A DNA stretch of 64,000 bases from a virus. Both the position numbers and the translations under genes were made by a program. The first letter of the stretch is position 1, and each line of letters opens with the position of its first letter. Below the pieces are notes generated by a model. It was not told the DNA's origin. It made no database searches and was given only the letters and a program-made list of their open reading frames with translations. Shown piece after piece: positions 30,330-52,838 of the stretch. Location of the stretch: the IMG/VR virus record IMGVR_UViG_3300014039_000016, positions 8,829-72,828 of that record; one strand, 5' to 3'.

Positions 30330-33300
30330 ATGTCAAATAAGAATAGTCAAGATATTTCTTCAGCTTTATTAGCGGCATTTGAAACTTATAGTAAAAGCAC
30401 TGCCGCATCAGTAAAAGCATCTGTTACTATTGAATGTACAATTACTAGTATTGTAGATAGAGCTGCGGGCATCTATACTGTTAAATATCAAAATAATATA
30501 TTTAATGTATATTCTAATAATGCTGACTACTCTATTAAAGATATTGTCTATGTTTTAGTTCCAGAAAATGATTTCTCAAAAAAGAAAATGATTGTAGGAC
30601 TAATAAAACATAATACGGATGAATCAGCGTCTTCCGCGGAAGAAGATTCTACAGCTAGTCAATATCTTGTAATTGCAGACAATGTTTTAGATATTAACTC
30701 AAAAGAAGTTATAAACCTTTGTTCTTTTCATACAGAAACTAAAGATGTTTTTTCAAGTAATGTGGATTCCGCGGACCAGGTTTTAATGCCAAAATATTTA
30801 AAACATTATAAAACTTATGCTTTATCTATGAAAGTAAAAACTTCATTAATAGATAGTCAAAGAGTTGGCGGAGATTATGGTATTACATTACAGCTTCCAT
30901 TCTTCAGATATAGTGAAGATAATGATAAAATGATTAATGATAAAACTTTAACATTTGATATTCATAAGATGTTAGGTAATCCATATAATTATCAAGTTTG
31001 GACACAGCAAACTTATTATTTTACATTAGAAGAAAATGATGAAGAATTTTATGATAGCCGCAGAAGTCCTATTATTTCTGCTTTTGTAAGAGACTTTAAT
31101 CAAGATGAAAATATTGATACAAATGATATTTTTATTAAAGATGTTCAATTCTTAGTTGTTCAAGCTTTAACAGAAACAGAGATGCAAGGTAATTATTTAA
31201 AAATAAAATCTGATACTGGAGAATACTTTTTAAAGAATTATTTTGAAACAAAGAAAACTTTAAAACCAATTTTAAAGATAAAAGGACAAGAGAAGAATAT
31301 CAATGGATATGATTGCTATTGGTTTGTAAAAGATGCTTCAGTTAATGCAACTAACAATCCTAACTATTGTACAAAAGGCGGACTTGGTTGGAAATGTCTT
31401 AATGAGAAAACTAAAGTTAATACAAATGACAATGGAGATACTTCTTATCAATATGTTACAAATATATACAGTTATCAAGTAAAGATAGAAGATGTTAAAA
31501 CATCATTGATTTATAAGTGTGTATTAACAAAAGATACAGAAAGAATTTCTGGTGAATTAGAAATTGTAAATCTTAATTCAGATATTAAGTTTAGTTTATA
31601 TTCAACAACAGGAAGTAATAATTTTGTAAAAAATATAGGTAAAGTAAGTCTTGCGGCAGACCTTTATTATCCAGGCATTACAGATAATGAAAATTCAACA
31701 AGTAATTTTAAATATTACTGGGATAGATACGCAAAAGACGGAACTTATTTAGATAGTAATTTCTTAACTTTTAGTGATATAAATATTAAAGAAAACGGAC
31801 ATTACATTACTAAAGGTACTTATCCAACTTCAAAAATGCAGGATAGTAATTTAATTACTTGTACCGTATTTGAAGAAAAACAGCGCGCGGATGGTAGCAT
31901 AGAGAGCATTAACCTTGGTAGTGCGGATTTAGCGGTTTCCGCAATAGATACTTATGAATATGTAACCTACTTGTATAATGCAACTAGATTATATAATTAT
32001 GATTCAGATGGAGATTCTCCTTTTTCAGAATATTATGATAAAGATACAACAAACTTAAATGAAATTGAACCAATTACATTTAAAATATATAAAGCAAATG
32101 GAAATGAATTAACAGAAACAGAATATTTAGCTGTTAATATCATTTGGAGAATACCAAAGAAATCTTTAATTAATATTAATCCTATTTTAGTTAGTGAGGA
32201 AGATGATAATTATTATTATGTTCGTGGTGAGAGAAGTCTTCCTTATACTATTGATAGTACATACAATCCTTCAAAAAGTAATAATGAGATTACTCTATAT
32301 ACTATTTTTGCAGGCGTGGAGATGTTAAATAATACATCGTTTACTTTTGTTAAAGATGGCGGAAATGGCACTAATGGTACGAACTATAGTGCAGAAATCA
32401 TTATTGATGGATATGCATATGGACAGAAAAATCCAACTACTAATGGAGTATATAAACTTTGTTATGTTTATTTTGCAGATAGCGCTAAATGGATGCTATA
32501 TGATATGCAGAATAATCAGCTAATTGATGATACAACATTAAGGACTCTTGATGTAAGAGTATTTAGTAAAGGCGAAGTAATTACCGATGATACACAATAT
32601 AGTGTAAAATGGAGCATGTTTGATGATAAAGCAACTAATCCTTGTTTTACTTTTGATGATACAAAGAATCAGTTAATTCCATCAAAAGCATTTGACCCCT
32701 CGGAAGTATATTGTAATATTCTTCAAGCAGAAGTGACAGTTACAGATACAAGTGTTGCTAATAAAAACTGGATAATTTATGCTTATTATCCTATTGAAAT
32801 TACTTATTGTGCAAAAGAGTCTGATATTATTTATACAGATGAAAATGGTAATAAGAGATGCGCAGTTCCAGTGCTTAATGGCGGATATTCAGAAGTATTA
32901 TTTGCTTCAGATGGTACAAATCCAAAATGGGATAATAGTTCTAATTTTACTATTGTAGATAACTTATATAGTATAGATAGTTCAAATGTCTATGACTATG
33001 AATGGGAAACATCAGAGAACTTAAACATTTCAGAATATAGAAGTGCAGATTTACCAGAGAATCAGAAAGTCATTGAACCTACTTCAAAATTTGATAGTGG
33101 TATTAGTAAAAACTATGTAAAAACAACACTTACTCTTGATTCGGAAACTAAGGAGAAATTAACAAAAACAAAAGAAGAATATACTAAAGAAGCAGAAGAC
33201 TATCAAACTCAAATTACTGCTTTAACAACTAATTATTCAACTTTAAAAAATGTTTTAAGCTATTTTCAATATAAACCTTGGTTAAATGTTTTAACAGAAG

Positions 33301-35765
33301 TAAAAGATTATATGTCTCTTAATAATGATATGGTTAGAACTCTGAAAGAAAGTGGAAGTCTTTTAAGTGATGTTAGTAAATATTATCAACAGCATACTGA
33401 AATTGGTGGAATTGTAACTATTGATTTTGTTACTTATAATAATTATATTAATAGAGATATTACAAACGCATTATTAGGTAAGACTTTACCAGTTTCTTTT
33501 TCAACTAGAAAGATTGATTTAACAGATAGACAGCTTGCTAGATTAAAAGAAAAACTTGATATTGCTATTTATAATGTATTTGTAAATTATGTTAATATAT
33601 ATAATGATAAGATAGAAGTAGTTCTTCAATATAAGAATCAATTAATCGCGGAAGAAGGCGGTGCTAGGAAGTACGAAAGCAAAAGAGAAAAACTCTATAG
33701 CCTTTGCTCTGGAGATTCTACTAATGCAATTGCGGAAGGGGTATATCCTGTTTCCCGCATGATATCTACTTTTGATAAGATTAAAACAGCTTACAAAAAT
33801 TCTTACGATAATTTAGTCGCATTACAAAATCATTTCACAGAAGTAAGTTCTTATTCTGAATACAGTGATATTTTTGAAAATATGAAAAAGACACTGTTAG
33901 ATTATGGAAAATTATCAGATTCAGAAGAGAATATGGAAATTAAAGAAAATTTAACACTTGATTATAATAATAAGTTAAGTTTATTATATACAGATAAAGT
34001 AGCAGCCATCGTTCAAGCTAATGCCTATGATGTATTAATTGGTGTTGAGATGAATAGAATTATTCATATTAAACCAATTATTATGCTGTATAATAGATAT
34101 GCTATGTCTAATATTAATGGTTGGGATGGTAATAAGATATATACGGGTGATGAAGACAGCTTCTTATTAGCTCCGCAAGTAGGTGCAGGTAAGAAAGACA
34201 GCAATAATAAATTCACTGGTATGGTTATGGGACTTAGAAATTTGAATAAAACATCTGCCGCGGAAGATACTCAGGTAGGTCTTTTCGGATATAGCGGTGG
34301 CGCGCAATCACTTTTCTTAAATGCAGAAGATGGTTCTGCAATATTTGGTCTTCATAAAAGAGGACAAATTATTATTGACCCATCAACATCACAAGCCTTG
34401 TTATATAGTGGTAATTTTTATAAAGAATTTGGTAAAGATGGAAAGCCAACTGGTTATTCTTCTCAGAATAGGGATAATCAAGGTATGCAGATTGATTTAA
34501 CAACACCTAAAATTGAGTTTGGTTCTGGTAATTTCATAGTTACTCCTGAAGGACATGTAACTGCAAAAGGTGGAGGCTCAATCGCAGGTTGGCAAATTGG
34601 AGACACAACTTTAACAAGTTCTAATGGGAAAATTACTTTAGATTCTAAAGATACTAAAATCTGGGGTGGAGAAAGACATTCTACTCTTGATAATACTACT
34701 GATGGATTTTATTTAGGTCCGGATGGTATTAGTATAGGTTCTTGTTTTAGAGTAAATCAAGATACTTTATTATTAGGAAGGTTAAGGAGTGATAGCCGAC
34801 ATTGGGAATTAAAATATGACGCAGAAAATAGCTATCTAGGATACGGTACAAAAGGAAGTAGTAATTCTGTTTATGTAGGAACAGATGAGATTGCTTTAGG
34901 TCGAAAATTTAGTGTTAATAATGAAGGTGAATTAACTGCAACATCAGGACACATAGGCGGATGGGAAATTGGAGATAAGAGTTTATCTTGTGATAGTAGA
35001 AGTGCTTCTATGTATAGCGGCAGTCATACCACTTTAGATTCAACATCAGGCGGATTTTATTTAAGTTCAGATGGTTTTAGTCTTGGTAAACATTTTAAAG
35101 TTGATGATGATGGCTTATTGACTGCTTCTGATATAAGTGTATCCGGAAGAATAGAAGCGTCTAGTGGTAGTATTGGTAGCTTTGATATTTCTGATGGACA
35201 TATCAGTACTAATGGTAAGACATGGAGCGGAGAAGATAATGATAGAGATGGAGTTTATATTGGTTCAGAAGGTATCTATTTAGGTGCTAATTTCTGGGTT
35301 GATATAGAAGGTAACTTACATGCAAGTAATGCAACTGTAACAGGTAATGTTACTGCTAATAGCATTGATTTTGATACAGCTTCTATCTCGGGAACTTTAT
35401 CTGCCGGACACATTAACTGTCAAGGTGTCGTAGATGCCGCGACTATTTACTGTAGTGCTGCAAATGTTACGGGAACTCTTACTGCGGGTCAAATAGATTG
35501 TCAGGGCGTCATTGATGCTGGAACAATAAGCGCTGATAAAATAACAACTGGCTCATTAAGTGTTGAACGTATTGATACTCATCAGGTTACGGGGGCTTCT
35601 GGTTCTCCTGCATGGATACCTGCTTGGATTTGGGGCGGTTCATCATGGGCTCAATATTATGTTTTAGTATGCTCAGGAACTATTCCAGGTGGCGGAGGTA
35701 CTGCACCATCTTCATTAGATTCTTCAAGTTCTGATGACGGTGATGGTGGAGGCCATAGTTTCTAA
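30330..35765 (+). CDS. Giant tail-tip or baseplate protein (1811 aa), positioned like a distal tail protein (Dit), with a C-terminal triple G-x-I-G-G-W-x-I-G-D repeat and TGTLTAGxIDCQGV repeats
   Basis: An AAAGGAGG RBS, its position right after the TMP gene, and the internal repeats. Confidence 0.55.
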   Translation: MSNKNSQDISSALLAAFETYSKSTAASVKASVTIECTITSIVDRAAGIYTVKYQNNIFNVYSNNADYSIKDIVYVLVPENDFSKKKMIVGLIKHNTDESASSAEEDSTASQYLVIADNVLDINSKEVINLCSFHTETKDVFSSNVDSADQVLMPKYLKHYKTYALSMKVKTSLIDSQRVGGDYGITLQLPFFRYSEDNDKMINDKTLTFDIHKMLGNPYNYQVWTQQTYYFTLEENDEEFYDSRRSPIISAFVRDFNQDENIDTNDIFIKDVQFLVVQALTETEMQGNYLKIKSDTGEYFLKNYFETKKTLKPILKIKGQEKNINGYDCYWFVKDASVNATNNPNYCTKGGLGWKCLNEKTKVNTNDNGDTSYQYVTNIYSYQVKIEDVKTSLIYKCVLTKDTERISGELEIVNLNSDIKFSLYSTTGSNNFVKNIGKVSLAADLYYPGITDNENSTSNFKYYWDRYAKDGTYLDSNFLTFSDINIKENGHYITKGTYPTSKMQDSNLITCTVFEEKQRADGSIESINLGSADLAVSAIDTYEYVTYLYNATRLYNYDSDGDSPFSEYYDKDTTNLNEIEPITFKIYKANGNELTETEYLAVNIIWRIPKKSLININPILVSEEDDNYYYVRGERSLPYTIDSTYNPSKSNNEITLYTIFAGVEMLNNTSFTFVKDGGNGTNGTNYSAEIIIDGYAYGQKNPTTNGVYKLCYVYFADSAKWMLYDMQNNQLIDDTTLRTLDVRVFSKGEVITDDTQYSVKWSMFDDKATNPCFTFDDTKNQLIPSKAFDPSEVYCNILQAEVTVTDTSVANKNWIIYAYYPIEITYCAKESDIIYTDENGNKRCAVPVLNGGYSEVLFASDGTNPKWDNSSNFTIVDNLYSIDSSNVYDYEWETSENLNISEYRSADLPENQKVIEPTSKFDSGISKNYVKTTLTLDSETKEKLTKTKEEYTKEAEDYQTQITALTTNYSTLKNVLSYFQYKPWLNVLTEVKDYMSLNNDMVRTLKESGSLLSDVSKYYQQHTEIGGIVTIDFVTYNNYINRDITNALLGKTLPVSFSTRKIDLTDRQLARLKEKLDIAIYNVFVNYVNIYNDKIEVVLQYKNQLIAEEGGARKYESKREKLYSLCSGDSTNAIAEGVYPVSRMISTFDKIKTAYKNSYDNLVALQNHFTEVSSYSEYSDIFENMKKTLLDYGKLSDSEENMEIKENLTLDYNNKLSLLYTDKVAAIVQANAYDVLIGVEMNRIIHIKPIIMLYNRYAMSNINGWDGNKIYTGDEDSFLLAPQVGAGKKDSNNKFTGMVMGLRNLNKTSAAEDTQVGLFGYSGGAQSLFLNAEDGSAIFGLHKRGQIIIDPSTSQALLYSGNFYKEFGKDGKPTGYSSQNRDNQGMQIDLTTPKIEFGSGNFIVTPEGHVTAKGGGSIAGWQIGDTTLTSSNGKITLDSKDTKIWGGERHSTLDNTTDGFYLGPDGISIGSCFRVNQDTLLLGRLRSDSRHWELKYDAENSYLGYGTKGSSNSVYVGTDEIALGRKFSVNNEGELTATSGHIGGWEIGDKSLSCDSRSASMYSGSHTTLDSTSGGFYLSSDGFSLGKHFKVDDDGLLTASDISVSGRIEASSGSIGSFDISDGHISTNGKTWSGEDNDRDGVYIGSEGIYLGANFWVDIEGNLHASNATVTGNVTANSIDFDTASISGTLSAGHINCQGVVDAATIYCSAANVTGTLTAGQIDCQGVIDAGTISADKITTGSLSVERIDTHQVTGASGSPAWIPAWIWGGSSWAQYYVLVCSGTIPGGGGTAPSSLDSSSSDDGDGGGHSF

Positions 35766-41429: not shown

Positions 41430-42179
41430 ATGAGCTATAGTATTGGACAATACAATAATATAAATGAATCTTTAGAGATTATGAGTCCTGTAAGCCAAAG
41501 CGGCGACCCATATGAAGTAGAGACTATAATTGAAGATACAGGTATTGTTTTTAAAGACCCCGCAGTTAAATTAAGTGGGGTTTTATCTAGTAATAACAAT
41601 TACTTTTTACATTGTAAAATAAAGCAACTTAGTACAGAACAAACTTTTTATGTTAAGCTAAGAACTGCGGACGATACAGAAACAAAAGAACAAAATATTA
41701 AAATTGTAACTGTAAAACAGGGTGCAGGATGGTTTGACCTTCAAATTGTTTTTAATCCGATTATAAATTCTTTTAATGAAATTTTATTTAGCTTAACAAG
41801 AAGTACGATTGATTATACAAGTACTCCAAGAAAACCAATTGTGATTTTTGAAGAATTATCTGAATTACAAAATCTATTAGGCGGAAGTGCGATTCCCGCG
41901 AGTGTGGTTTTAAAATTAGGAGTTCAAGCTGGACCTGGTCTTAATATGTGTATTAATGGAGAGGGCGTTATGGTTGGTAACAGCGGAAAGTATGAAGTTA
42001 ATAATGGAAAGGTTTATGTTACTTTCTTCTCTATTGTTACAACTGCAACAGATACAGATATAGAAGAGAAACAAGCTGAAAATAAAACAATTTGTTTATT
42101 CAATAGAGCAGATGGAGATAATAGAGTACGAAAAGTACGACCATTTACTATTGATTATATTTATGAGGAAGGAGAATAA
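41430..42179 (+). CDS. Hypothetical tail protein
   Basis: ORF with a GAAAGGAG RBS. Confidence 0.45.
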   Translation: MSYSIGQYNNINESLEIMSPVSQSGDPYEVETIIEDTGIVFKDPAVKLSGVLSSNNNYFLHCKIKQLSTEQTFYVKLRTADDTETKEQNIKIVTVKQGAGWFDLQIVFNPIINSFNEILFSLTRSTIDYTSTPRKPIVIFEELSELQNLLGGSAIPASVVLKLGVQAGPGLNMCINGEGVMVGNSGKYEVNNGKVYVTFFSIVTTATDTDIEEKQAENKTICLFNRADGDNRVRKVRPFTIDYIYEEGE

Positions 42180-42182
42180 TAA

Positions 42183-43862
42183 ATGGAAAGCTTTTATGGC
42201 GGAAGACAAGGTAAATCATTTATTTTAGTTGACCATTTTGATACAATCGCGGATATGGAAGAATGCTTTGCCGCAGGTGGTAGTACAACAGATAGAGTGA
42301 ATTATGGAGAATATGTTATTATTGATACCATCATAAATAGACATGATAAACAAGATTTAGATAATGGTAAAGTCTATATGCGTAAGATAGATAATACCGC
42401 AGAGTATATAGGTCAAATTGTAGGACCACAAGGTAATTGTCCTATTGTTGATTTTCAAGAGTTTAATGACCCAAATCATTATTTAACTGATGGTACACAA
42501 GTTTCTACTATTTCTAACACAGGGCTTGTACCAGGCAAAGATAGCGCGGGTAATTATAATGATAGTGTAACTACAAAATGGGGAATTATGAAAGACAAAT
42601 ATGGTAATGTAATAGGTTGTTATATTGGCTTAAAATTTCCTTATTTAGTTGAAGATTATACTGCAACAAGCGTTTCCGCATATGTAGATGCATCTATTGA
42701 TAAGATAGAAGATGAGCATCCATTTTATAAAAAATGGAGAATTAATGTTCCAAAGGGTATAAAAGGGGATGCTGTTACTGGAGTTGAAGTGGTAACAAAT
42801 AGCGGAAGACAGTATTATAGATTTACAATTACTAATTATGATAAGTCAACTCCAACAACAAGAACGGTTGATTTTGATTATAATATTATTAGCAATATCG
42901 CGGTTGCCGATAATGGTACTTTAACAATATCATTAACTTGCCATGATGATATTATATTTAGTAATAGATTAAGATGGATTGACCAAATGGCATTAAGTGA
43001 TGGTGGTGTCTTAAGCGTTAAGTATAATAATGTTAGTAGTTCAACAAATATTAATCAGAGTAATCCGATTAGATGGGTTAATAATATGAGCCTTGCGGCA
43101 GATGGTAAAGTTTCTACAGCATATAATACTTCATCAACACCTGTTGTTATTAATAATGATAATCCTATTAAGTGGATTGAATCTATATCATTTGCGCAAA
43201 ATGGTAAGGTTAGTGTAAAATACAATACACAAGAAACTGCAACAATAGTAAATAGTGAAAATCCTATTTTATGGATTGCCGCAATGTCGATTGATGATGA
43301 GGGTCATGTTGTTGCTACTATGAATGATAATAGTGAAAAGAAATCAACTGGTCATTTAAAATGGTTTGAGAATGTTACTCTCGCGGCAGATGGTACTCTT
43401 ACTTTTGTTTATCATAATTCAGAAGATGGTAATGTTACTTTTAGTAAGGCTATTAAATGGATTAGTGGTATTAAAGTTAATACAGGAGATAAGGAAGGAG
43501 AGGGAAATCAAAAACTTAATATAAGTTATAATAATGGAATTAATGAAGATGTTGGTAATCCTATTAACTATATTATGGAAGCTATTGTTTCTCAACCAGA
43601 TGTTGAAAATTCAACAGCGGAACCTTATCATTTATTGATTTTATACGCAGACCCCGCGTATCGTGCATCATTAACTTCGCCAGTTAGTTATCCAAGTAAG
43701 AAATTTAATACTTTAAGAACTGATTGGTTTGATGCTGGTATGATTCGTGGAGAAAAAGGAGAAGTGACTGGAGTTGTTCCAAGTCAGATTATCAGTGAAT
43801 CTGCGGATAGTCTAGTTGAAAATGGTATTTTATTAAATACAACAACAATAAAACATGCTTAA
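42183..43862 (+). CDS. Tail fibre or receptor-binding-like protein with a degenerate internal repeat of about 38 aa (NPI(R/K)W(V/I)...(L/F)AADGKVS)
   Basis: At least five repeat copies, and a terminator follows. Confidence 0.5.
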   Translation: MESFYGGRQGKSFILVDHFDTIADMEECFAAGGSTTDRVNYGEYVIIDTIINRHDKQDLDNGKVYMRKIDNTAEYIGQIVGPQGNCPIVDFQEFNDPNHYLTDGTQVSTISNTGLVPGKDSAGNYNDSVTTKWGIMKDKYGNVIGCYIGLKFPYLVEDYTATSVSAYVDASIDKIEDEHPFYKKWRINVPKGIKGDAVTGVEVVTNSGRQYYRFTITNYDKSTPTTRTVDFDYNIISNIAVADNGTLTISLTCHDDIIFSNRLRWIDQMALSDGGVLSVKYNNVSSSTNINQSNPIRWVNNMSLAADGKVSTAYNTSSTPVVINNDNPIKWIESISFAQNGKVSVKYNTQETATIVNSENPILWIAAMSIDDEGHVVATMNDNSEKKSTGHLKWFENVTLAADGTLTFVYHNSEDGNVTFSKAIKWISGIKVNTGDKEGEGNQKLNISYNNGINEDVGNPINYIMEAIVSQPDVENSTAEPYHLLILYADPAYRASLTSPVSYPSKKFNTLRTDWFDAGMIRGEKGEVTGVVPSQIISESADSLVENGILLNTTTIKHA

Positions 43863-43868
43863 TGCATA

Positions 43869-43897
43869 GGGCGGCTTAATTGCCGCCCATTTTTTTA
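43869..43897 (+). terminator. Rho-independent terminator (gggcggc ttaatt gccgccc followed by T7)
   Basis: Direct reading. Confidence 0.85.
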
Positions 43898-43909
43898 TTG
43901 GTCAAAGTT

Positions 43910-43939
43910 TTGTAATTTATTAATGAAGATTTTTATATT
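43910..43939 (+). promoter_or_regulatory. Candidate promoter (TTGTAA, an 18-nt spacer, TATATT)
   Basis: It lies between a terminator and the RBS of the 43966 gene. The match is weak. Confidence 0.3.
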
Positions 43940-43965
43940 ATATATAAATATGGAGGTGTTGTTTA

Positions 43966-44181
43966 ATGAGTAAAAGTGATTCATCTAAGTTCATCTCACA
44001 AATAACACTTGGAGAAGATAAAGTTGTATTAAAAGACCCAAATGCTATTGAGAGAGAAAAGGATAGTGATGTTGAAGCTGTTTTAAATTTTGTAAATGGT
44101 TTTAATATTTTTGGTATGAATATAACTTTAAACAAGGAAGATAATACAATTAATTTTGGAAAACAGGAGGGTGAAGAATGA
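43966..44181 (+). CDS. Small protein, paralogue 1 (KDPNAI...LNFVNG...FG...INFG)
   Basis: It shares a motif with the 44178..44522 protein. Confidence 0.5.
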   Translation: MSKSDSSKFISQITLGEDKVVLKDPNAIEREKDSDVEAVLNFVNGFNIFGMNITLNKEDNTINFGKQEGEE

Positions 44182-44522
44182 GCGATAAAGTAAGTACAAA
44201 AATTACTTTTGAGAATGAAGTTTATACTGTAAAAGACCCAAATGCAATAAATAAATATGAAGATAGCGCTGATTCTGATGAAGTACAAGGTCAGGGTGAT
44301 GTAACTGGAATTTTAAATTTTTCAAATGGAATGAAATTATTTGGAATTACCGGTGTTGACTATGATAAAGATACTGAAACAATTAATTTTGGAGAGTATA
44401 ATCCTAAAGATAATGCGCCAGTATATAAATTTAAGATAATGACAGAAAATGAATATTCTGCTTTAACTGATAAAGACCCTTATACTTTTTATTTATTAGA
44501 AAAAAGTAGTGAGGAGGAATAA
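44178..44522 (+). CDS. Small protein, paralogue 2, with a C-terminal EYSALTDKDPYTFYLL motif
   Basis: It shares the KDPNAI...LNFSNG...FG...INFG pattern. It overlaps the next start (ATGA). Confidence 0.5.
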   Translation: MSDKVSTKITFENEVYTVKDPNAINKYEDSADSDEVQGQGDVTGILNFSNGMKLFGITGVDYDKDTETINFGEYNPKDNAPVYKFKIMTENEYSALTDKDPYTFYLLEKSSEEE

Positions 44523-46426
44523 TGCAAGAATATTATTTAGATGGTAATGATAATAAAACTAAATCAAGTTTTTATCAAGATATCAATAGTGGAATATATA
44601 ATAATGTTGCTATTGGTAAAGTATATTTTGATAATAAATTACTGTGGACTGCACCAAAGAAAAAATATGCTATTATTAATATCTATCAGATGAGCAGAAT
44701 TAGGACAATAGAAAGTAATCAATATAATTATTTAACTTATGATATTAACTTTATAAAAGGTGTTCTACCAGAATATTACAATGTAGCAGAAAAAGGCTCT
44801 TCTGTTGCAATTTATGCAAAAGAAGGCAAATTTTATTCAACTGCAGATTATGCTTATTTTAGTGAATTGAGATTATTAAATTCATATATGGGGTTTGGTG
44901 GTGCTCCTGCAGAAGGGTCTATCACCAGTCAACCAATAGATATAGGTAATTCAAATATATGGTTTAATAAAAGTAATTATCATGGTAGTTATAATAATGA
45001 TGGATTTATGACTTTTTCAGATTGTTATTGGAATTATCAAAATATTACTTTTCCTAATACTGTAACTAATTTATTTTATACTTTTTCAAATGCTTGGGGA
45101 TTAACTTGGCAATTACCTCTTAAGTGTAGTGATTCTGTATTAAATATGTATTATACTTATTTTAATGCAGGTGGTGGTGTAGAAGTTATAGATAATAAGG
45201 TTCAAAGAAAATCAATAAATAATTGGAGTACTTTATGCTTAATGTATGAGGGCGGAATTGGCAATAATGTATTAGATATGCAAAGTACTTTTGAGGGTAG
45301 CTCTTTAACAACCCCACCTTGGCCTCATAGTATGAATAATTCATGGGGTTTTTTTGGTCCTAATACAGTAAAAGCAATAGCTACTTATCGAAGTTGTCCC
45401 GCTCTTAGGGAAGTAGGAATTGATTGGATGGGACATAGTGATTCTAATATTTTTCCTGCTAATTTAAAATATATTAGTCAAGTTTTTTATAACTGTCAAA
45501 ATTTAACAACTGCAGTAGTTGGAGTACAAGACCCGGCGAATACTTATATTTGGGAAGTATATCGTGATTGTCCAAATATAAAATTAATACTTATGGACCC
45601 AACAGTATCTAATTTTGGAGGCAGTATTTTTGGAGGTTGGAATTGGTGTATTGGCGGAGATTGTGCTTTACTTAAAGATAATATAATTTTTAGGGCTGGT
45701 GGCTGTGATAGCTTATTAAATGTTAGTGCTTTAGGTCCTAGTTTAGGTTATAATGCTAGAAAACAAGTTAATAATATGAGTTTTAGTATGTCATTGAATA
45801 TCGTAGATTTCTCTTATTGTGCAGATTCTTGCTCAAATCTAAACTATTTTGAATTTGAAGGCGAAAATGTTATTAATATAGCATGGTGCTTTAATGGTTG
45901 TAATAATTTAAGAAATGTATTTCAAAGACAGCCAATGCAAAATTGTAATACTGTAAATATGAGTTTTACTTTTTCTAATTGTCCTAAATTAGAATGTGAT
46001 GAAACTTTATTAATAACTTCAAAAAATTTAATGACTATTCAATGTTGTTATTTTGGCTGTACTAATTTAAAACATATTCATGACCGTTATATTACTAGTA
46101 ATTGGACAAGAATTGGCGGAGATAAATTAGTAAATGTAAGCGCTGCATTTCAATGGTGTCCATTATTAGGTGGTAATTATTATTTTGCTTCTGAAAATAT
46201 CATATATGGAGATTTATTAGGATATCAATCTTCACCTGGAAGAGGAAATATTTTAAATATTTATATTAAATCAAATACTTTAACGAATAATAGTTTTGCA
46301 AAACATTATGCAAAAAATATTTGGTCTAATGGAAATGGTTATGATGATGCTGCTAATAATATTTTTATATACTATGCTGAAAAACAACCAGAATATAATC
46401 GTTATAAAGAAGCTAATTGGGGATAA
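44522..46426 (+). CDS. Cys/Asn/Trp-rich leucine-rich-repeat-like protein (BspA-type LRR), probably a host-binding tail component
   Basis: About 22-aa C..L..(V/I)....F..C..L repeat units. Confidence 0.5.
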   Translation: MQEYYLDGNDNKTKSSFYQDINSGIYNNVAIGKVYFDNKLLWTAPKKKYAIINIYQMSRIRTIESNQYNYLTYDINFIKGVLPEYYNVAEKGSSVAIYAKEGKFYSTADYAYFSELRLLNSYMGFGGAPAEGSITSQPIDIGNSNIWFNKSNYHGSYNNDGFMTFSDCYWNYQNITFPNTVTNLFYTFSNAWGLTWQLPLKCSDSVLNMYYTYFNAGGGVEVIDNKVQRKSINNWSTLCLMYEGGIGNNVLDMQSTFEGSSLTTPPWPHSMNNSWGFFGPNTVKAIATYRSCPALREVGIDWMGHSDSNIFPANLKYISQVFYNCQNLTTAVVGVQDPANTYIWEVYRDCPNIKLILMDPTVSNFGGSIFGGWNWCIGGDCALLKDNIIFRAGGCDSLLNVSALGPSLGYNARKQVNNMSFSMSLNIVDFSYCADSCSNLNYFEFEGENVINIAWCFNGCNNLRNVFQRQPMQNCNTVNMSFTFSNCPKLECDETLLITSKNLMTIQCCYFGCTNLKHIHDRYITSNWTRIGGDKLVNVSAAFQWCPLLGGNYYFASENIIYGDLLGYQSSPGRGNILNIYIKSNTLTNNSFAKHYAKNIWSNGNGYDDAANNIFIYYAEKQPEYNRYKEANWG

Positions 46427-46439
46427 AAGGAGGGCTTAA

Positions 46440-48011
46440 ATGAAAAATTGGAACTTTAATGGTTCATTAAAAGAAAATAATAAAAGAGTTCTTACAGAAG
46501 CAGAAGGTTCTGTTAATATGATTAGTGCAAGAAAAGACCCCTCTGTATCTTTTAATAATGATAACGGTACATTAAAAATGACATTAAATATTCCCGGGGG
46601 TGGAGGTTCTGGCGGTGGAGGAGAAACTGAATCTGGAGTAGGTAGAACCTATGTTACTGAAAGTGGATGTAGCCGCGGAGAATATTTTAATGTTTATGAA
46701 GGTAGACATATAGGAAATGCTATAGGTAAATTTTCACATGCAGAAGGTGGAAATTTAATTAGAGAAAATTCAAGTTGTTGGCCGCATAATAATTGGGGCG
46801 GAAGAGATATTCAAATTGATAGAAACAAACCCGAATTTAAAAATCTTAGTTCATGTAAAATTTTTATAGAATCTTCTATTGCTAGTGGACTGAATTCTCA
46901 TGCAGAAGGATATGAAACAGCTGCGATTGGAGACCACTCTCATGCAGAAGGACAAGATACTGATGCAAAAGGACAAGCAAGTCATGCAGAAGGAAGACAA
47001 ACTGTAGCAGAAGGAGACTATTCACATTCTGAAGGACGCTATACGACAGCAAATGGAAATTGTTCTCATGCAGAAGGATATTATAGTTCTGCATCAGGTG
47101 TAGAATCTCATGCAGAAGGAACTTCTACTACTGCTAATGGTTATACTTCTCATGCAGAAGGAGGTTATACGACAGTGGAAGCTTCATATAGCCATGTAGA
47201 AGGTCGTAAAAACACTATCTCAGCATCTGGGTGCTCAAGTCATGTTGAAGGATTTAATAATAATCTTAAAGGTGCAAGGAACCATATTGAGGGTATGAAC
47301 AATACAATAAAAGATGATAACATTAAAGGTTCTCATATAGAAGGTGGCAATAATCAATATATTTTCGGTGTTTATAGCCATATTGAAGGATATAATAATG
47401 TGGGTGATGATTCTTATTATTCACACATTGAGGGTGAAAATAATAGAGATTATGGTAACCGTAATCATATTGAAGGATATAATAATGAATGTGATGATGC
47501 AACATGTTGTCATATTGAAGGAAAAGAGAATAGCACAGGCGATGGTGCTTCTGAAAATCATATAGAAGGTAGTTATAATAAATATAATTATCAAACTAGG
47601 TCTTTCCATATAGAAGGACAATATAATGATTTTTCTTATTGTAAAGGACCTGCGCATATAGAGGGTTATTCTAATAGCCCATCTATGTCTTCTTCACATA
47701 TAGATGATATAGATATGGATAGTACTCATATTCAAGGAAGATTTGCTAAAATAGATGAAACGATGTTTAAAACTCGTCCCTCATTTGATGAATGTAAAGA
47801 TTTTAAGTATGCTGATATCATAGGTGGTGGCACGAGTGGTTTAGATAGAAAAAATATTTCGCTTCTTGATTGGGATGGAAATCAAACAATAGCTGGTGAA
47901 TTATATATTAAGAATTCATCTCAACCTTTGATTAGATGCTTAACTCAATCAGAATATAATAGTTTAGAAACTAAAAATCCATATACTTTATATCTTATAA
48001 AGGAGGCTTAA
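46440..48011 (+). CDS. Tail fibre protein with a conserved N-terminal anchor (MKNWNFNGSLKEN...), a Gly-rich hinge, about 25 copies of a 13-residue His-containing repeat (xSHAEG / HIEG) and a C-terminal SEYNSLETKNPYTLYLI motif
   Basis: Direct reading of the translation. Confidence 0.6.
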   Translation: MKNWNFNGSLKENNKRVLTEAEGSVNMISARKDPSVSFNNDNGTLKMTLNIPGGGGSGGGGETESGVGRTYVTESGCSRGEYFNVYEGRHIGNAIGKFSHAEGGNLIRENSSCWPHNNWGGRDIQIDRNKPEFKNLSSCKIFIESSIASGLNSHAEGYETAAIGDHSHAEGQDTDAKGQASHAEGRQTVAEGDYSHSEGRYTTANGNCSHAEGYYSSASGVESHAEGTSTTANGYTSHAEGGYTTVEASYSHVEGRKNTISASGCSSHVEGFNNNLKGARNHIEGMNNTIKDDNIKGSHIEGGNNQYIFGVYSHIEGYNNVGDDSYYSHIEGENNRDYGNRNHIEGYNNECDDATCCHIEGKENSTGDGASENHIEGSYNKYNYQTRSFHIEGQYNDFSYCKGPAHIEGYSNSPSMSSSHIDDIDMDSTHIQGRFAKIDETMFKTRPSFDECKDFKYADIIGGGTSGLDRKNISLLDWDGNQTIAGELYIKNSSQPLIRCLTQSEYNSLETKNPYTLYLIKEA

Positions 48012-48013
48012 TA

Positions 48014-49174
48014 ATGATTTTTATGGGTACTTCTAATATACAAGATTTAAAATATGGTAATATAAATATTGCTTCTGCTTATTGGGGAAGTGATTTAATT
48101 TGGCAAAAAACACAACCAGATTATTCTAATTATAAAGCTTTTATTAATGTTGAAGCATTTGGAAATTTATTAAATGCGAATAATAATTTCCTTAGGCATA
48201 ATGTTGAAGCAATTCGCATGGTAAATGAATTAGGCGTTCAAACTGGAGAAACATCTTCTTTATTCTTTTTAGGTATGGAAAATAGAAGTAATTATTATGC
48301 AGTTGACAATAATATAACTAATATTATATATAAAAATGCAAAATATTATTATGATTCAAGAACAAAATTCTTAATTTTTCAAAAGCCTTCTTCTTTTGGA
48401 TATAAAAATATTTATTTTAGTACAAGCTATTTAGGCGGTTTATTTGAATGGTGTAGCAATTTAAAAGGACCTGTTACTTTTATAAATTATGATAGGGTAC
48501 TCTATATGGAAAATACATATCGAGGATGTACTAATCTAAGATATTCTGTCTGTGGGAATTATGTAAAAGATATGTATTATACCTATGAATATTGTACTTC
48601 TTTAGAAGAAGCAGTTTGCGGTCCAAGTGTAACTAATTTAGTAGGTACTTTTTCAGATTGTTATAGTTTAATAGAAGCTAAGTGTGGAGAGCGCGTAAAA
48701 GAAATGTTTCAAGCCTATAATAATTGCACCAATCTAGTAATCTCTGCATGCGGGAATAATGTTCGTAATATGACGTGGGCTTATAGAAATTGTAAAAATT
48801 TAGTAACTCCAACATGTGGAAATAATGTTGACATTTTTAATAGCGCATATACTAATTGTAGTAATTTAACAACAGCGGTTGTAGGTAAAAATGTAATTTG
48901 GTGGTCACAATGTTATCATTTTTGCGATAATATAACTGGAAATATTTATCTTGGAGACCACATTACTGGCATCGCGGCAGGTTTGAAGGAATGTTTTTAT
49001 CCTTATAATGACCGTTGGCTTATGAAGAATTTTTTCTTAAATTTTAATAGTTATACATATAATTCACTTATTCTTAATAGCCCTGATGGTATAGTTTGGA
49101 ATTACTGGGCTAATAATTTAGGTTGTGATAATGCTAAGTATAATATGTATGTATATTATTTAGATAAAATGTAA
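48014..49174 (+). CDS. LRR-like protein, with five consecutive 22-aa repeats of the form CGxxVxxMxxxYxxCxxLxxAx
   Basis: The repeats CGNYVKDMYYTYEYCTSLEEAV, CGPSVTNLVGTFSDCYSLIEAK, CGERVKEMFQAYNNCTNLVISA, CGNNVRNMTWAYRNCKNLVTPT and CGNNVDIFNSAYTNCSNLTTAV. Confidence 0.55.
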   Translation: MIFMGTSNIQDLKYGNINIASAYWGSDLIWQKTQPDYSNYKAFINVEAFGNLLNANNNFLRHNVEAIRMVNELGVQTGETSSLFFLGMENRSNYYAVDNNITNIIYKNAKYYYDSRTKFLIFQKPSSFGYKNIYFSTSYLGGLFEWCSNLKGPVTFINYDRVLYMENTYRGCTNLRYSVCGNYVKDMYYTYEYCTSLEEAVCGPSVTNLVGTFSDCYSLIEAKCGERVKEMFQAYNNCTNLVISACGNNVRNMTWAYRNCKNLVTPTCGNNVDIFNSAYTNCSNLTTAVVGKNVIWWSQCYHFCDNITGNIYLGDHITGIAAGLKECFYPYNDRWLMKNFFLNFNSYTYNSLILNSPDGIVWNYWANNLGCDNAKYNMYVYYLDKM

Positions 49175-49193
49175 AAGGAGGTTAAAATAATAA

Positions 49194-50063
49194 ATGAAGA
49201 ATTGGAATTTTAACGGCTCCTTAAAAGAAAATGGCACAAGAGTATTAACTGACGCGGAAGGTGTAGTTAATATGATTGGCGCTAGAGAAGATGCGGAATG
49301 CAAATTCACAAATGATAATGGAAAATTAAAAATGCTTCTTAAGATACCTGCGGGAGGCGGTACTGGTGGAAGCATAGATGTTGATGACGAAATTAGTGAC
49401 ATTTCTGAAAATCCAGTTCAAAACAAAGTTATTGCGGAAGCTTTAAAAAATGTAAAAATTCCAGTTGATGATGAAATTAATGCGGAATCTGAAAATCCAG
49501 TCCAGAATAAAGTGATTGCCGCGGAATTAGAAAAACTTTTTCAATCTGTCAGTGAAGGAAAACGGCTTATAGCACTCGCCATCACTGACAGAGGTGTTAT
49601 AACGAGTGCTACAGATAGTTTTGAACAAATGGCAAAGAATATTATGTCATTAAAGAGAAATGATTTAGATATTAGAATTTCTGATACATTCAAACCGGTG
49701 GCTCTTGGTGGTTTATCTACTACCAAGATGAAAGATTCTGTTAATGTTAAAACACAGATTCCTACTGGTGTATCATTTACAGAAGTATTTACTGGAATCA
49801 AGTTAGGTGGATTAAGTGTAGCTTCAATGACAGATACTGTTGCTATTAATGAAGTTATAAAGTACTATACTATTGATATTTCTAAGAAATCAAAGTATAC
49901 TTATGATAACAATTATGTTCTTACAGATACTAAGTATGAACTTAAAACAGATTATACTTATGTAGGAACAGAAGAAACTATTGATAGTGGTAGAATGGAA
50001 TATGTATCACTTGACTTCACTAAGTTTACAGAAGTTCAGGAGGTGAATATAACATGTGGTTAA
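49194..50063 (+). CDS. Tail fibre paralogue. It shares the N-terminal 55 aa with the 46440 protein and contains a 23-aa tandem repeat (DDEI.D.SENPVQNKVIA.EL)
   Basis: Alignment of the N-termini, and a 69-bp tandem DNA repeat at about 49381-49520. Confidence 0.55.
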   Translation: MKNWNFNGSLKENGTRVLTDAEGVVNMIGAREDAECKFTNDNGKLKMLLKIPAGGGTGGSIDVDDEISDISENPVQNKVIAEALKNVKIPVDDEINAESENPVQNKVIAAELEKLFQSVSEGKRLIALAITDRGVITSATDSFEQMAKNIMSLKRNDLDIRISDTFKPVALGGLSTTKMKDSVNVKTQIPTGVSFTEVFTGIKLGGLSVASMTDTVAINEVIKYYTIDISKKSKYTYDNNYVLTDTKYELKTDYTYVGTEETIDSGRMEYVSLDFTKFTEVQEVNITCG

Positions 50064-51046
50064 GATGGACAATTACTAAACTAAAAGGTTCTACTAATAT
50101 TTGTCAAATGGCAGAATTATACTTATATGATAAAGATGGTAATAAAATATCTTGGGCTTCGAGAACTACTGTTCATGCACCAAGTCAAGCTTCTTATTCG
50201 GGCAGTGAAGGTCCAGAAAAAATTATTGATGGAAATGTAAATACTAAGTTCTGTTTGTTAAATTTTAATATATATACTACAAGTGGTATGTCTATATTAA
50301 TTGAAATACCAGAAACAATAGATTTTACTTCTTATTCATATGTAACAGCTAATGACAGTTCAGAAAGAGACCCTATAAGCTGGATATTGGAATTAAGTTA
50401 TGACAATGAAACATGGTTCACAGTATCAGAGGTAACAGAAGACATCATCACTACCACAAGAAAAACAGAAACTCAAAAATGGGATATTAAAATGCCATTT
50501 GCTGTTAAATATTTAATTCAGTCTGATAATATATTATATACAATGGAAAACAATGAGCTTAAAGCATTAGAAGTCACTGAATTAACTTCAGAAACATTTA
50601 AAACATATGGTTCAGATATAGCACCAACATTTGATATTTTAAATGTGTTTATAAAACCAAAAATATATTGTTGGACAGATGACACACAACAACATGCATT
50701 AACTGCTTCAGTTAAAGCCACACCAAAACCACAGACTGTTATAACTAACGATATAGATTTATCAGACCCTAGTATAACAGGTATTGAAAAAGTTACTGCT
50801 GATTATACAGGTAATCCCACAATAGCTTGTAGCTTTGATAATGGAACTACTTGGAAATTATATAATGGTGTAGATTGGGTTGTATTAAGTGAAACTGAAA
50901 CAGGTATGACAATGGAAACACTATTAGCAATAACTACGGAAAACTGGACACAAATACTTCAAGGATTAACATCATTTAAAATGAGATTTACATTATCAAA
51001 TAAAGATGATACAGTTACTAATATAATCATAAACTTTACTAATTAA
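50054..51046 (+). CDS. F5/8 type C (discoidin) / CBM-like carbohydrate-binding protein
   Basis: The KIIDGNVNTKF motif, a beta-rich sequence, and an AGGAGGTG RBS. Confidence 0.45.
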   Translation: MWLRWTITKLKGSTNICQMAELYLYDKDGNKISWASRTTVHAPSQASYSGSEGPEKIIDGNVNTKFCLLNFNIYTTSGMSILIEIPETIDFTSYSYVTANDSSERDPISWILELSYDNETWFTVSEVTEDIITTTRKTETQKWDIKMPFAVKYLIQSDNILYTMENNELKALEVTELTSETFKTYGSDIAPTFDILNVFIKPKIYCWTDDTQQHALTASVKATPKPQTVITNDIDLSDPSITGIEKVTADYTGNPTIACSFDNGTTWKLYNGVDWVVLSETETGMTMETLLAITTENWTQILQGLTSFKMRFTLSNKDDTVTNIIINFTN

Positions 51047-51058
51047 AGGAGGATATAT

Positions 51059-52384
51059 ATGTTAAAAGGACATACTAAAATTGAATTGAAGAATGAAAAA
51101 ACTGGTGAAGTACAAGTTGTTGAGAAAGATAATATGATTACTAATGTACTAAATAAACAACTAACACTTATTCCATTACTTAATTCTATTTCAAATATTA
51201 ATTCTGAATATTTTCCATTAAATACTAATGGTATGGGAGGTATTGTTTTATTTCAGGAAACATTATCTGATGATTTAATAAATATACCTGATGAAAAAGA
51301 TAATCCTATTATTGGTTATGCTTCAAATGATGTTAATACCGAAACAGATACTAAAAGGGGTTCTCGCAATTTAACAGAAAGTGTGAAGTTAGATAATGGT
51401 TATAAATTTGTCTGGGATTTCACAACATCTCAAGCTAATGGACAAATATCAGCTTTAGGTTTAACACATGAAGGTGCTGGAAAAAATCCTAAAGGGACTG
51501 ATATTTTTGGATTATATATTAAACAAGATATAGCATCAGATAAAGAAACCCATCAGTATCTTAATTCAGCTATTTCATTTGATTGGGATAATTCCATTAT
51601 AACATGTATTAGGACTACAAGTACATCTCAGGTTACTATCCGAAAATATAAAATCGTATGTGGTTTAACTCCTTTAGGTATAAATGAAACTTTATATAGC
51701 CTTAAATTAGTATCTGAAGAAGCTATTGATATAGAAGGTATTATTAATGAACAAACAGTTTGGGTTGATAATTCCAGCAATAATTATTTATATGGTATAT
51801 ATTTGAATAGTAAAACTGGAAACATAGTACGAATAAATAAAGAAACTTATAAATTAGATACTTCTTATAATCTTAGTATAAGTATGTCTTCATATAACTA
51901 TTATATATATAATTCAGCAGATAAATTACCTATTGTAATAGTTGGAGACATGTTATATATATATCTGAATAATGCATTAGCCACTATAAATATAGTTACT
52001 GGAGATGCTAATGAAACTTTTGTCGAACTAAACGGAAGTAGGTCAAATACCATATCATTAGTATATAGAGGTGGATTAATACATGCTAATAATTTTTATT
52101 TGAACAAGGATTTGAATATAACTCGTAGAAAATCAACATCCTTAAATCATTCAGAAGATTTTTTTAGTAAGGGTAATGAAGGTGCAATGGGATACGAAGT
52201 TATATTTATTCGTGATGATGGAGTGGGTATAAGCATAACTGGACAAAATAATTATTCTACATTAGTCATAGGTAATTTGAGAGATTATCTTGCAACAATT
52301 AATAACCTTGATAGTCCAGTAGTTAAAACATCTGAACAAAGTATGAAGATTACTTATACAATTACAGAAGTGGAGGATAAATAA
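51059..52384 (+). CDS. Hypothetical tail-associated protein (441 aa)
   Basis: ORF with an AGGAGG RBS. Confidence 0.45.
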   Translation: MLKGHTKIELKNEKTGEVQVVEKDNMITNVLNKQLTLIPLLNSISNINSEYFPLNTNGMGGIVLFQETLSDDLINIPDEKDNPIIGYASNDVNTETDTKRGSRNLTESVKLDNGYKFVWDFTTSQANGQISALGLTHEGAGKNPKGTDIFGLYIKQDIASDKETHQYLNSAISFDWDNSIITCIRTTSTSQVTIRKYKIVCGLTPLGINETLYSLKLVSEEAIDIEGIINEQTVWVDNSSNNYLYGIYLNSKTGNIVRINKETYKLDTSYNLSISMSSYNYYIYNSADKLPIVIVGDMLYIYLNNALATINIVTGDANETFVELNGSRSNTISLVYRGGLIHANNFYLNKDLNITRRKSTSLNHSEDFFSKGNEGAMGYEVIFIRDDGVGISITGQNNYSTLVIGNLRDYLATINNLDSPVVKTSEQSMKITYTITEVEDK

Positions 52385-52818
52385 TGACAACAACTGTAAT
52401 AAATAGTTTAACTAAAAAAGCTAAAAATTCAGATATTACATATCAAATTGCGGCAAAGCAATTTCTAGTAGAGCCTTTAAGAGGTTCTACTGGAGTTAAT
52501 AATCTTGAAGAACAATTTTTATTAGGTGTTGATTGTGTAACAACAGAGCAAGAAGATTCTAGTACACATGTAAAGACAATAGTACAAGAATTTAGAAATG
52601 CAGATTCTGTTACAACTAATTATTATACAATCACTTCAACTATACAACCAGAACCAAGTGCGGGATACACTGCCGCATATACTGAGACAGAAAGACATGT
52701 TCTCTCTTTTGTTTCTGCGGCGGGTACTACTACTGTGGCAACTAAAGTTGTATCAAAAAAGAAAGAAAACAATATTACTTCTACTAAGACAGTAATTACA
52801 AACAGTTTGGCGGGTTAA
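52384..52818 (+). CDS. Thr/Ser-rich hypothetical protein
   Basis: ORF whose start overlaps the previous stop. Confidence 0.45.
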   Translation: MTTTVINSLTKKAKNSDITYQIAAKQFLVEPLRGSTGVNNLEEQFLLGVDCVTTEQEDSSTHVKTIVQEFRNADSVTTNYYTITSTIQPEPSAGYTAAYTETERHVLSFVSAAGTTTVATKVVSKKKENNITSTKTVITNSLAG

Positions 52819-52838
52819 AATAACCCGCCTTCTTTTTT
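52809..52838 (+). terminator. Rho-independent terminator (ggcgggtta aaa taacccgcc followed by ttcttttttg)
   Basis: Direct reading. This is the end of the structural operon. Confidence 0.85.

Follow-up and report, generated by a model that had tools for sequence, protein, structure and literature searches.

A putative two-gene tail fibre joint between Phage_tail_C-ended stalks and leucine-rich-repeat proteins in a phage from IMG/VR

In a stretch of virus DNA of 64,000 nucleotides (nt) (IMG/VR record IMGVR_UViG_3300014039_000016, positions 8,829 to 72,828; this whole stretch is called the window below), two genes whose products end in a common motif are each followed directly by a gene for a cysteine-rich leucine-rich-repeat (LRR) protein. 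The first pair consists of a protein of 114 amino acids (aa) and LRR1 (634 aa), and the second of a 523-aa fibre and LRR2 (386 aa). Comparison of sequences from related phages indicates that the conserved unit is the fibre C-terminus together with the N-terminus of the LRR protein, which is called the plug in this work. Each pair is probably a split fibre made from two genes, in which the plug docks on the end of the stalk and the LRR body is an exchangeable host-binding tip. We infer docking from conservation, the co-occurrence of motif and plug, the lack of fusions in the sample and the low confidence of the plug when it is modelled in isolation. The presence of the LRR proteins in virions, their binding to the host and the stoichiometry of the joint are presumed.

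The two gene pairs

Both gene pairs are present as the initial annotation of this DNA had placed them (open reading frame (ORF) check; Table 1). The starts of the LRR genes had been described there as overlapping or spaced by 3 nt. The overlap holds for pair 1 (1 nt, TAATG), but the gap of pair 2 from the stop codon to the ATG is 2 nt. The junctions read GAG GAG GAA TAATG and AAG GAG GCT TAA TA ATG, respectively. The tails that had been set in brackets after the shared motif, EKSSEEE and KEA, encode the Shine-Dalgarno (SD) sites of the LRR genes. These embedded SD sites and the 1-nt overlap imply that the members of each pair are separate genes with coupled translation.

In frame offset (-1 nt in pair 1, +2 nt in pair 2), each pair looks as it might if a single gene had been broken by a frameshift, whether from a sequencing or assembly error, in a pseudogene or by programmed shifting. 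This explanation is hardly credible. The boundary of pair 1 carries its own ATG and a strong SD site in all four of four independent assemblies; for pair 2, the full downstream gene is found in three relatives, and a 33-aa start alone only in the relative L161. Moreover, the boundary recurs in dozens of unrelated phages, including the cultured phages Bxb1 and 80alpha, and the fetched loci hold no fused form. We therefore rejected a frameshift on the grounds of the conserved boundaries, own start codons and SD sites.

The Phage_tail_C ending

The similarity of the two endings, on which the initial annotation had rested, exceeds chance (BLASTP of both C-termini, E 1e-6), and the shared ending corresponds to PF24243 (Phage_tail_C), a curated Pfam family of 26 positions that is described as 'Phage tail tip domain'. 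With 28.1 bits (E 1.3e-6, residues 499-521), the 523-aa fibre is above the cut-off of this family, 23.7 bits. The motif stops 5 residues ahead of the stop codon in the 114-aa protein and 1 residue ahead of it in the 523-aa fibre. A profile of the motif matches just these two of the 805 stop-to-stop segments of the window, both of which had been in the profile. Judged by its sequence pattern, the unit probably forms a strand, a helix and a second strand. No matches were obtained by tblastn with the final 74 residues of the fibre against 50,697 phage records, and a literature search of incomplete coverage found nothing on PF24243 or the peptide QAEYDAL. The shaft of the same fibre resembles the BpaC head (7o23; phmmer, E 2.3e-6) and appears YadA-head-like, with a PF05658 score of 22.9 bits, under the 25-bit cut-off.

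LRR1 and LRR2 as BspA-type solenoids

In agreement with the initial annotation, LRR1 and LRR2 are both Cys-rich LRR solenoids, and among solved structures their folds are closest to those of the BspA type (Foldseek on AlphaFold2 models). For both models the best PDB matches, at probability 1.00, were 4fs7 (BACOVA_04585), 4cp6 (PcpA), 6mlx (TpLRR), 4h09 and 4gt6. The LRR1 model has a mean predicted local distance difference test score (pLDDT) of 71.6 and a predicted template modelling score of 0.73; in the LRR2 model, residues 135-350 are confident and residues 1-134 are below 50. LRR2 scores 26.6 bits on Pfam LRR_5 (PF13306), just under the 27.7 cut-off, and many of its homologues bear precomputed PF13306 and/or PF03382 (DUF285) matches. 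LRR1 has no Pfam match. Judged from their aligned profiles, the LRR1 and LRR2 families are homologous (hhalign probability 99.5%, E 5.9e-23). A phmmer search of LRR2 against PDB was uninformative; PHROGs has no family for LRR1, LRR2 or the 114-aa adaptor, and neither LRR protein gave a gp38- or Tfa-type match in Pfam or PHROGs.

Such LRRs had been considered uncommon as receptor-binding partners in phages. This is true for cultured phages, where LRR2 gave 5 weak tblastn matches in 50,697 records and no PHROG, and no literature on BspA or DUF285 LRRs as phage tail parts was found in a search of incomplete coverage. The LRR type itself, however, abounds: 126,135 cluster representatives match at E <= 1e-3, of which 8,277 still do so at E <= 1e-30, whereas a word-indexed search had shown 35 LRR homologues only. 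Some members of this Cys-ladder LRR family (P0046-P0191) are as long as 6,432 aa, and as many as 26 stretches were matched in one protein.

BspA-type LRRs are known bacterial surface adhesins, and the nearest folds of both models, PcpA, TpLRR and Bacteroides surface proteins, suggest another role for these genes: morons or host-interaction genes that serve, for example, mucus adhesion, adhesion to a eukaryotic host or modification of the host surface, and do not bind bacterial receptors. The giants of the family, which come without organism or genomic context, are unlikely tail parts and fit this explanation. Yet neither N-terminus shows a signal-peptide-like hydrophobic stretch (by eye only), the LRR genes are translationally coupled to fibre genes within a terminator-bounded tail operon, and the conserved plug is also found on non-LRR partners of motif-ended fibres. 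A moron role is considered very improbable.

Constant ends and variable bodies among relatives

Conservation of the junction in related cassettes had been proposed as a check, and the stalk end and LRR start are in fact kept in four relatives (L001, L159, L160 and L161), where DNA identity is about 92-93% across the ends of the stalk genes and the first 32-119 LRR codons. The genes of the 71- and 114-aa proteins are present in these relatives too, and 104-113 of the 114 residues are identical. Identity between the window and L160 is 92.8% up to 44681, covering the 114-aa gene and LRR1 codons 1-53, and then collapses, with only 21% in the LRR1 body (blastn). With L001 and L159 it is 93% up to 44879 (codon 119), and similarity comes back near the LRR1 C-terminal cap (blastn). 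In the most divergent homologues (P0043 and P0044, the latter being the L159 protein), which are ~43% identical, the LRR1 body is 32-34% identical. Across the LRR1 homologues, residues 1-53 are 92-96% identical in six and 70% identical in the most distant one, and residues 121-560 drop to 21-34%.

A similar picture is seen in pair 2, where an island spanning the gene boundary is conserved (Table 1). Against L160, the LRR2 body after the island is without similarity, and only weak repeat matches in the fibre shaft precede it; L160 has a different, longer LRR body after the same MIFMNASNIQDLKYGNINIASAYWGSDLIW start. Similarity of L161 to LRR2 also ends at 48110, and this relative has retained only a 33-aa ORF, MIFMGTSNIQDLKYGNINIVRVYWGNNLIWIKI followed by the stop codon (L161 12324-12425), which may be a remnant or a functional cap. 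The breaks are thus at 44681, at 44879 and, twice, at 48110. When LRR1 is modelled alone, its residues 1-45 have a pLDDT of about 30 (AlphaFold2). The plug is the best conserved and yet the least self-folding segment, as expected of a segment that folds on a partner.

The initial annotation had offered two readings of the junction, a linker for cassette exchange by recombination and a docking motif. Cassette exchange is borne out, since LRR bodies have been replaced or deleted in L001, L159, L160 and L161 with the junction kept. The breakpoints, however, lie 32-119 codons inside the LRR genes and not at the motif. Conservation of the motif at the protein level, from a phage of 30% G+C to a mycobacteriophage and a staphylococcal phage, argues that it is not a DNA-level recombination site.

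It might still be supposed that the junction is only a patch of DNA homology for cassette shuffling, with the two termini remaining apart and the LRR protein attaching elsewhere or acting alone. The clustering of breakpoints beside the junction would agree with this, as would the island at 47868-48110, 91.8% identical to L160 amid poor or absent flank matches. Nevertheless, the motif and plug peptides are kept in the window, Bxb1 and 80alpha, where DNA homology is impossible; motif and plug co-occur far above chance in the sampled loci and are never fused there; and the plug is modelled as disordered alone although it is the best-conserved segment. A pure homology patch is thus decidedly unlikely.

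Pairing of the plug with the motif across phages

Among the + strand ORFs of the window of at least 60 aa, the N-terminal strand pattern of the plug is found in LRR1 and LRR2 only. The N-termini of 26 partners align nearly without gaps as up to three tandem units of ~10 residues, with the patterns (K)(I/L)G.xx(I/V), x(Y)(L)Gxxx(I/V) and (K)(V)Y(L)Gxxx(V)(W). No Pfam family exists for the plug.

IMG/VR was searched from the motif side with a back-translated TQAEYDAL pattern, which returned at least 120 stretches. Among the matches listed, 72 of 118 in-frame TQAEYDAL matches lie no more than 25 residues from the stop, and 47 distinct ORFs end in the full motif TQAEYDAL..(T)LY.I. The next gene starts within -40 to +40 nt for 44 of these 47. 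A strict plug pattern, [VIALM][YF].[GDN]...[VILM][YWF] in the first 45 residues, occurs in 20 of the 44 partners, whereas the 349 control ORFs taken from these loci are all without it (Fisher p 9e-22). A hidden Markov model (HMM) of the plug was also trained on seven sequences outside the test set (LRR1, LRR2, L003, L167, L023, 80alpha gp69 and Bxb1 gp5). Among the same matches, it recognised 12 of 44 partners and 0 of 339 controls at E <= 1e-3, and 17 partners and 1 control at E <= 0.1.

The bodies of the partners elsewhere are diverse and adhesin- or lectin-like; ConA-like lectin, cadherin, InlB B-repeat and InlK domains were recognised among them, as was an AbfB-like N-terminal region. Since it is domains of these or other kinds that most such partners bear, the junction is not specific to LRR proteins. 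Of the two readings first offered, probable docking is preferred to a linker.

A search from the LRR side covered LRR2 homologues and IMG/VR loci with a back-translated CGxNVTNM pattern, and these were nearly always directly 3' of a fibre-like gene. The unrelated siphophage contig L003 has genes of tape-measure, Dit-like and Tal-like type and, after them, an ORF of 59 aa, MYGQDEYKILNYIKRMLEKGGGGGGLKTVTLTQAEYDALVAAGTVDSKTFYMIIDEDGE; this adaptor (helix-GGGGGG-motif) overlaps the start of a 659-aa LRR gene. In L167, a faecal Bacilli metagenome-assembled genome, a 397-aa fibre ending ...LTQAQYDALGSNINPETLYIIG is followed by an 886-aa LRR protein. A related-locus search in IMG/VR returned nothing for the single queries LRR2 or P0002 and one locus for P0022. 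A scan of genome contigs with the LRR pattern gave mostly single chance matches, with real LRR genes only in L167 and L196 among the 11 loci checked.

No fusion of motif and plug in one polypeptide was found in 2.26 Mb of fetched loci. The motif, searched loosely, gave 95 matches in these loci, and 66 of them are no more than 12 residues away from a stop. Internal motif matches in the octapeptide sample run into other domains, such as collar-like IYP(V/I)GSIYI segments. A plain linker would be expected to be fused sometimes; that motif and plug never are in this sample points to a need for both termini at the joint to be free, or for the two chains to be present in unequal copy numbers.

The same arrangement in the cultured phages Bxb1 and 80alpha

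The motif profile also matches the C-termini of 80alpha FibU (6v8i, E 9e-5) and of Bxb1 gp4, the 'tail collar fibers' (9d93, E 7e-3), whose PF24243 scores are 22.1 and 51.3 bits, respectively. Both have the Phage_tail_C end of the window stalks, and in both phages a gene whose product starts with the plug units follows within 5-10 nt. Bxb1 gp5 (236 aa; L158, AF271693, 3371-4081) begins 10 nt after gp4, with ...AFAKAAIGSTEIQKISIGTTEIW and ...KAAIGSTEIQKISIGTTEIW as stretches of its start, and matches PHROGs annotated 'minor tail protein'. In 80alpha, gp69 (phi11 orf51, 131 aa; L250, DQ517338, 6937-7332) begins 5 nt after FibU (gp68) with ...KLIYEGEEYTKVYAGNIQVW and belongs to a PHROG of unknown function. 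FibU has been modelled to residue 123 only, and the thin fibres were reported to end in a 4-nm knob (PMC7048315). The gp69 protein is a candidate for this knob at the end of the FibU fibre.

The partners gp69 and gp5 are not LRR proteins, unlike those of the window. The stalks differ as well: that of FibU consists of BppU_N (123 bits) and collagen, and those of the window are the 114-aa adaptor and the YadA-head-like fibre. BppU_N gave no match on the 71-, 114-, 523- and 289-aa proteins of the window. No solved interface between motif and partner was found for the FibU or gp4 systems, and no published description of this junction was found in literature of incomplete coverage.

Evidence against docking and the chaperone alternative

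Several observations weigh against the docking of exchangeable tips on these stalks. The 114-aa protein scores 15.4 bits on PF24243 (E 0.012), under the cut-off, even though it has the same kind of downstream partner as the 523-aa fibre. A clear plug of the strict pattern is found in only about half of the partners listed, and in L031 the LRR protein encoded after a motif-ended gene starts with another kind of N-terminus. As it was built from one exact octapeptide, the IMG/VR sample is biased, and the control ORFs include spurious reading frames. In the cultured phages, Bxb1 gp5 is missing from the deposited tail-tip model 9D93 and has no PDB entry, and gp69 is unmentioned among the baseplate proteins in the 80alpha baseplate paper (PMC7048315).

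The absence of gp5 from the deposited tail-tip structure and of gp69 from the listed baseplate proteins would also agree with a different function, in which the LRR proteins are assembly chaperones like Tfa or gp38 that help the stalk motif to fold or trimerise and are then released. Like Tfa genes, the LRR genes stand directly after fibre genes and have coupled translation. The proteins, however, are large for such a task: the LRR proteins have 386-634 aa and other partners up to 1244 aa, with adhesin- or lectin-type folds. Hypervariable bodies beside a constant stalk end are what one would look for in a protein that sets specificity, whereas a chaperone should be matched to its client. None of the Pfam matches was to a chaperone family, and the PHROGs matched by Bxb1 gp5 are of minor tail proteins. 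Chaperones of this kind are an unlikely explanation.

Proposed mechanism and its meaning

In the proposed scheme, the phage is a large siphophage-like virus of the gut, and the genes between the terminators at 43869 and 52809 form its exchangeable fibre operon. A stalk, either the 114-aa adaptor or the 523-aa fibre, would be anchored to the baseplate by its N-terminus and end in the 26-residue Phage_tail_C unit. The next gene would be translated by coupling through the SD site embedded in the final codons of the stalk. Its product, the tip, would start with the plug, two to three tandem units of ~10 residues ending Y-x-G-x-x-L-(I/V)-W, which may fold onto the free C-terminal motif of the stalk. 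The remainder of the tip, a Cys-ladder BspA-type LRR solenoid, would bind the host surface. Homologous recombination just inside the LRR gene may then swap or delete the LRR body and change host specificity; such exchange of tip bodies is possible because the stalk end and plug remain constant.

A bolder and rather doubtful extension is that a socket-and-plug joint of Phage_tail_C and plug is widespread among phages, with Actinobacteria and Bacillota among their hosts, and that the pseudo-repeats of the plug adapt the symmetry at 3:1, a single tip chain sitting on the three chains of a trimeric stalk. If true, capping at 3:1 would explain both the lack of fusions and the use of usually monomeric LRR solenoids as tips.

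Some parts of this scheme are already known, namely PF24243, BspA-type LRRs and fibres made from two genes. What appears to be new is that a gut phage would use LRR solenoids as its fibre tips, that Phage_tail_C would often be a joint for a separately encoded tip with a plug, and the plug itself. No phage genes are harder to spot in metagenomes than those of receptor-binding proteins, which set the host range. If the widespread socket-and-plug joint is real, a host-range determinant could be read off as the gene that follows any Phage_tail_C-ended one, with tips that are swappable by design. A Phage_tail_C end followed by a Y-x-G-x-x-x-V-W start would flag the specificity gene in uncultured phages. 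The junction would explain where natural tip swapping takes place and offer a splice point for host-range engineering. Moreover, candidate distal fibre parts are suggested in two well-studied phages (80alpha gp69 and Bxb1 gp5), and BspA-type LRR solenoids join the list of candidate gut-phage tail tips.

The fibre operon and the window

The window is phage DNA of ~30% G+C that also holds a portal gene, tail genes and NrdD, the last on the opposite strand. The closest cultured portals are those of the human-gut Phage Phass-1 (38% identity) and of Enterococcus phages of ~140 kb (34%); metagenomic relatives of the window phage reach 141-146 kb. No DNA near-identical to 42000-52000 was found among the 50,697 phage records, and no tRNAs were found in the window. 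Two giant ORFs lie upstream of the baseplate genes (21016-30225, 3069 aa; 30330-35765, 1811 aa), of which the 1811-aa ORF has no PHROG match.

Packed + strand genes between the two terminator-like hairpins encode proteins of 71, 114, 634 (LRR1), 523, 386 (LRR2), 289, 330, 441 and 144 aa. These strong hairpins flank exactly the block of genes that varies among the relatives. L159 is without the 289-, 330- and 441-aa genes, and L161 has other genes there; similarity to the relatives comes back at 52286-52342 (blastn). The first 59 residues of the 523-aa (46440-46616) and 289-aa (49194-49370) fibres are common to both, with 73% identity and a Gly-rich linker at the end, and are probably a common baseplate anchor. 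The 3' end of the 289-aa gene overlaps the start of the next gene by 10 nt, and the discoidin protein encoded there is a third, different tip candidate within the operon. The 71-aa paralogue of the 114-aa protein stops just ahead of the Phage_tail_C part. We infer that the N-terminus common to these two is a baseplate anchor; the paralogue might join the 114-aa protein in mixed trimers, or it might take the same site on the baseplate but bear no tip.

Table 1. Positions of the gene pairs, their junction elements and other features in the window
Feature	Position	Strand	Basis or remark
114-aa short stalk or adaptor	44178..44522	+	ends ...ENEYSALTDKDPYTFYLLEKSSEEE
Phage_tail_C-type motif of the 114-aa protein, residues 84-109, KFKIMTENEYSALTDKDPYTFYLLEK	44427..44504	+	own profile
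Shine-Dalgarno GAGGAGG for LRR1	44511..44517	+	within final codons of the 114-aa gene
LRR1, 634-aa Cys-rich LRR protein, proposed distal host-binding tip	44522..46426	+	
LRR1 N-terminal plug, residues 1-53, including IYNNVAIGKVYFDNKLLW	44522..44680	+	conservation, low pLDDT
523-aa fibre	46440..48011	+	N-terminal anchor, YadA-head-like SHAEG/HIEG repeats, Phage_tail_C end ...QSEYNSLETKNPYTLYLIKEA
Conserved junction island	47868..48110	+	last 48 fibre codons, gene boundary and first 32 LRR2 codons; 91.8% identical to L160
Phage_tail_C motif of the 523-aa fibre, residues 497-522	47928..48005	+	PF24243, 28.1 bits; own profile
Shine-Dalgarno AAGGAGG for LRR2	48000..48006	+	within final codons of the 523-aa gene
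LRR2, 386-aa Cys-rich LRR protein	48014..49174	+	LRR_5 match, AlphaFold2, Foldseek
LRR2 plug, residues 1-32, MIFMGTSNIQDLKYGNINIASAYWGSDLIWQK			Gly at 5, 15 and 25 (alignment of partner N-termini)
71-aa paralogue of the N-terminal part of the 114-aa stalk	43966..44181	+	BLASTP E 1e-12 against the 114-aa protein
289-aa fibre	49194..50063	+	N-terminal anchor as in the 523-aa fibre; without Phage_tail_C end
330-aa protein with F5/8 type C (discoidin) domain	50054..51046	+	PF00754, 28.8 bits
Intrinsic-terminator-like hairpin, 7 G-C pairs and T run	43869..43888	+	directly 3' of the gene for a 559-aa tail protein; marks the upstream border of the variable operon
Terminator-like hairpin	52809..52829	+	3' of the 144-aa gene; downstream border of the variable operon
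Portal gene	9053-10657		phrog_2739

Other junction types

Other kinds of junction were met in the searched loci. A second class was observed in LRR loci from IMG/VR and ENA (L002, L004, L007, L008, L016, L020 and L028). The upstream fibre ends in ...DF.Y..N.DGTYT(I/L)TGWKGT..G..ST.(L)IIPN...I.L before the stop codon, and the LRR protein starts with MINF(R/K)QY.N.TKI.IP..V.L; the gene break seems to lie inside the LRR N-terminal cap. In L023 the plug and the cap segment of this class are fused in one protein, and in L008 they form an 80-aa ORF between the fibre and LRR genes. A third LRR N-terminal type (L013 5928-8345, L196 5770-8001, P0020 and P0030), MAHK.L(V/I)GGTAY.(V/I).(G/S)GK.(M/L)VSGT.Y.IKKG(R/K)TLV.GTGY, comes after fibres that end in ...NGEI(Y/C)WTY(G/E) at the stop codon.

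An unrelated group with the TQAEYDAL peptide (L042, L067, L072, L087, L091, L118, L119, L139 and L146) is without the terminal TLY.I strand and ends in ...TQAEYDAL(P/A)(S/D)G.E(F/Y)I.NG..(R/Y)KK(P/G). with the last position variable. The next proteins in this group have 521-1373 aa and start with MA(E/K)..FG. In L105, the ORF at 3430-3558 and the one preceding it are two consecutive tiny ORFs (45 and 42 aa), each with a Phage_tail_C-like end.

Comparison with known systems

In the long tail fibre of phages T2, T6 and S16, the fibre gp37 carries a separately encoded adhesin, gp38, from the directly following gene. The N-terminal part of gp38 attaches to the distal end of gp37, and gp38 is an exchangeable specificity determinant. 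The window resembles the gp37-gp38 system of T2 and S16 in the directly downstream position of the partner gene, its conserved N-terminal part and its variable body. There is, however, no relation in sequence or Pfam family; the tip in the window is an LRR solenoid and gp38 is a polyglycine-sandwich adhesin. The socket in the window is a 26-residue Phage_tail_C unit, and attachment to it is proposed.

The Tfa proteins of Mu, P2 and lambda are small chaperones, and the fibre C-terminus and the Tfa C-terminus are the variable parts of these systems. Two genes, tight coupling and cassette variability are shared with the window. In contrast, the stalk C-terminus and the partner N-terminus of the window are constant, and it is the large body of the partner that varies. 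The window proteins gave no match to the Tfa family in Pfam.

BspA-type LRR surface proteins (LRR_5/DUF285) share the solenoid fold and the ~22-residue (Y/F)xxCxxL repeats with the LRR proteins of the window, although LRR2 is just under the Pfam cut-off for this type and LRR1 is outside it. Unlike those surface proteins, the LRR proteins of the window have two Cys per repeat and no evident signal peptide (by eye), and they bear a phage-type N-terminal plug and are encoded in a tail operon. The arrangement in the window would work like the two-component BppU-BppL fibres, of which it is not a member by sequence. The name of PF24243 implies a tip, but the gene neighbours suggest that in many phages this domain is the joint for a separately encoded tip.

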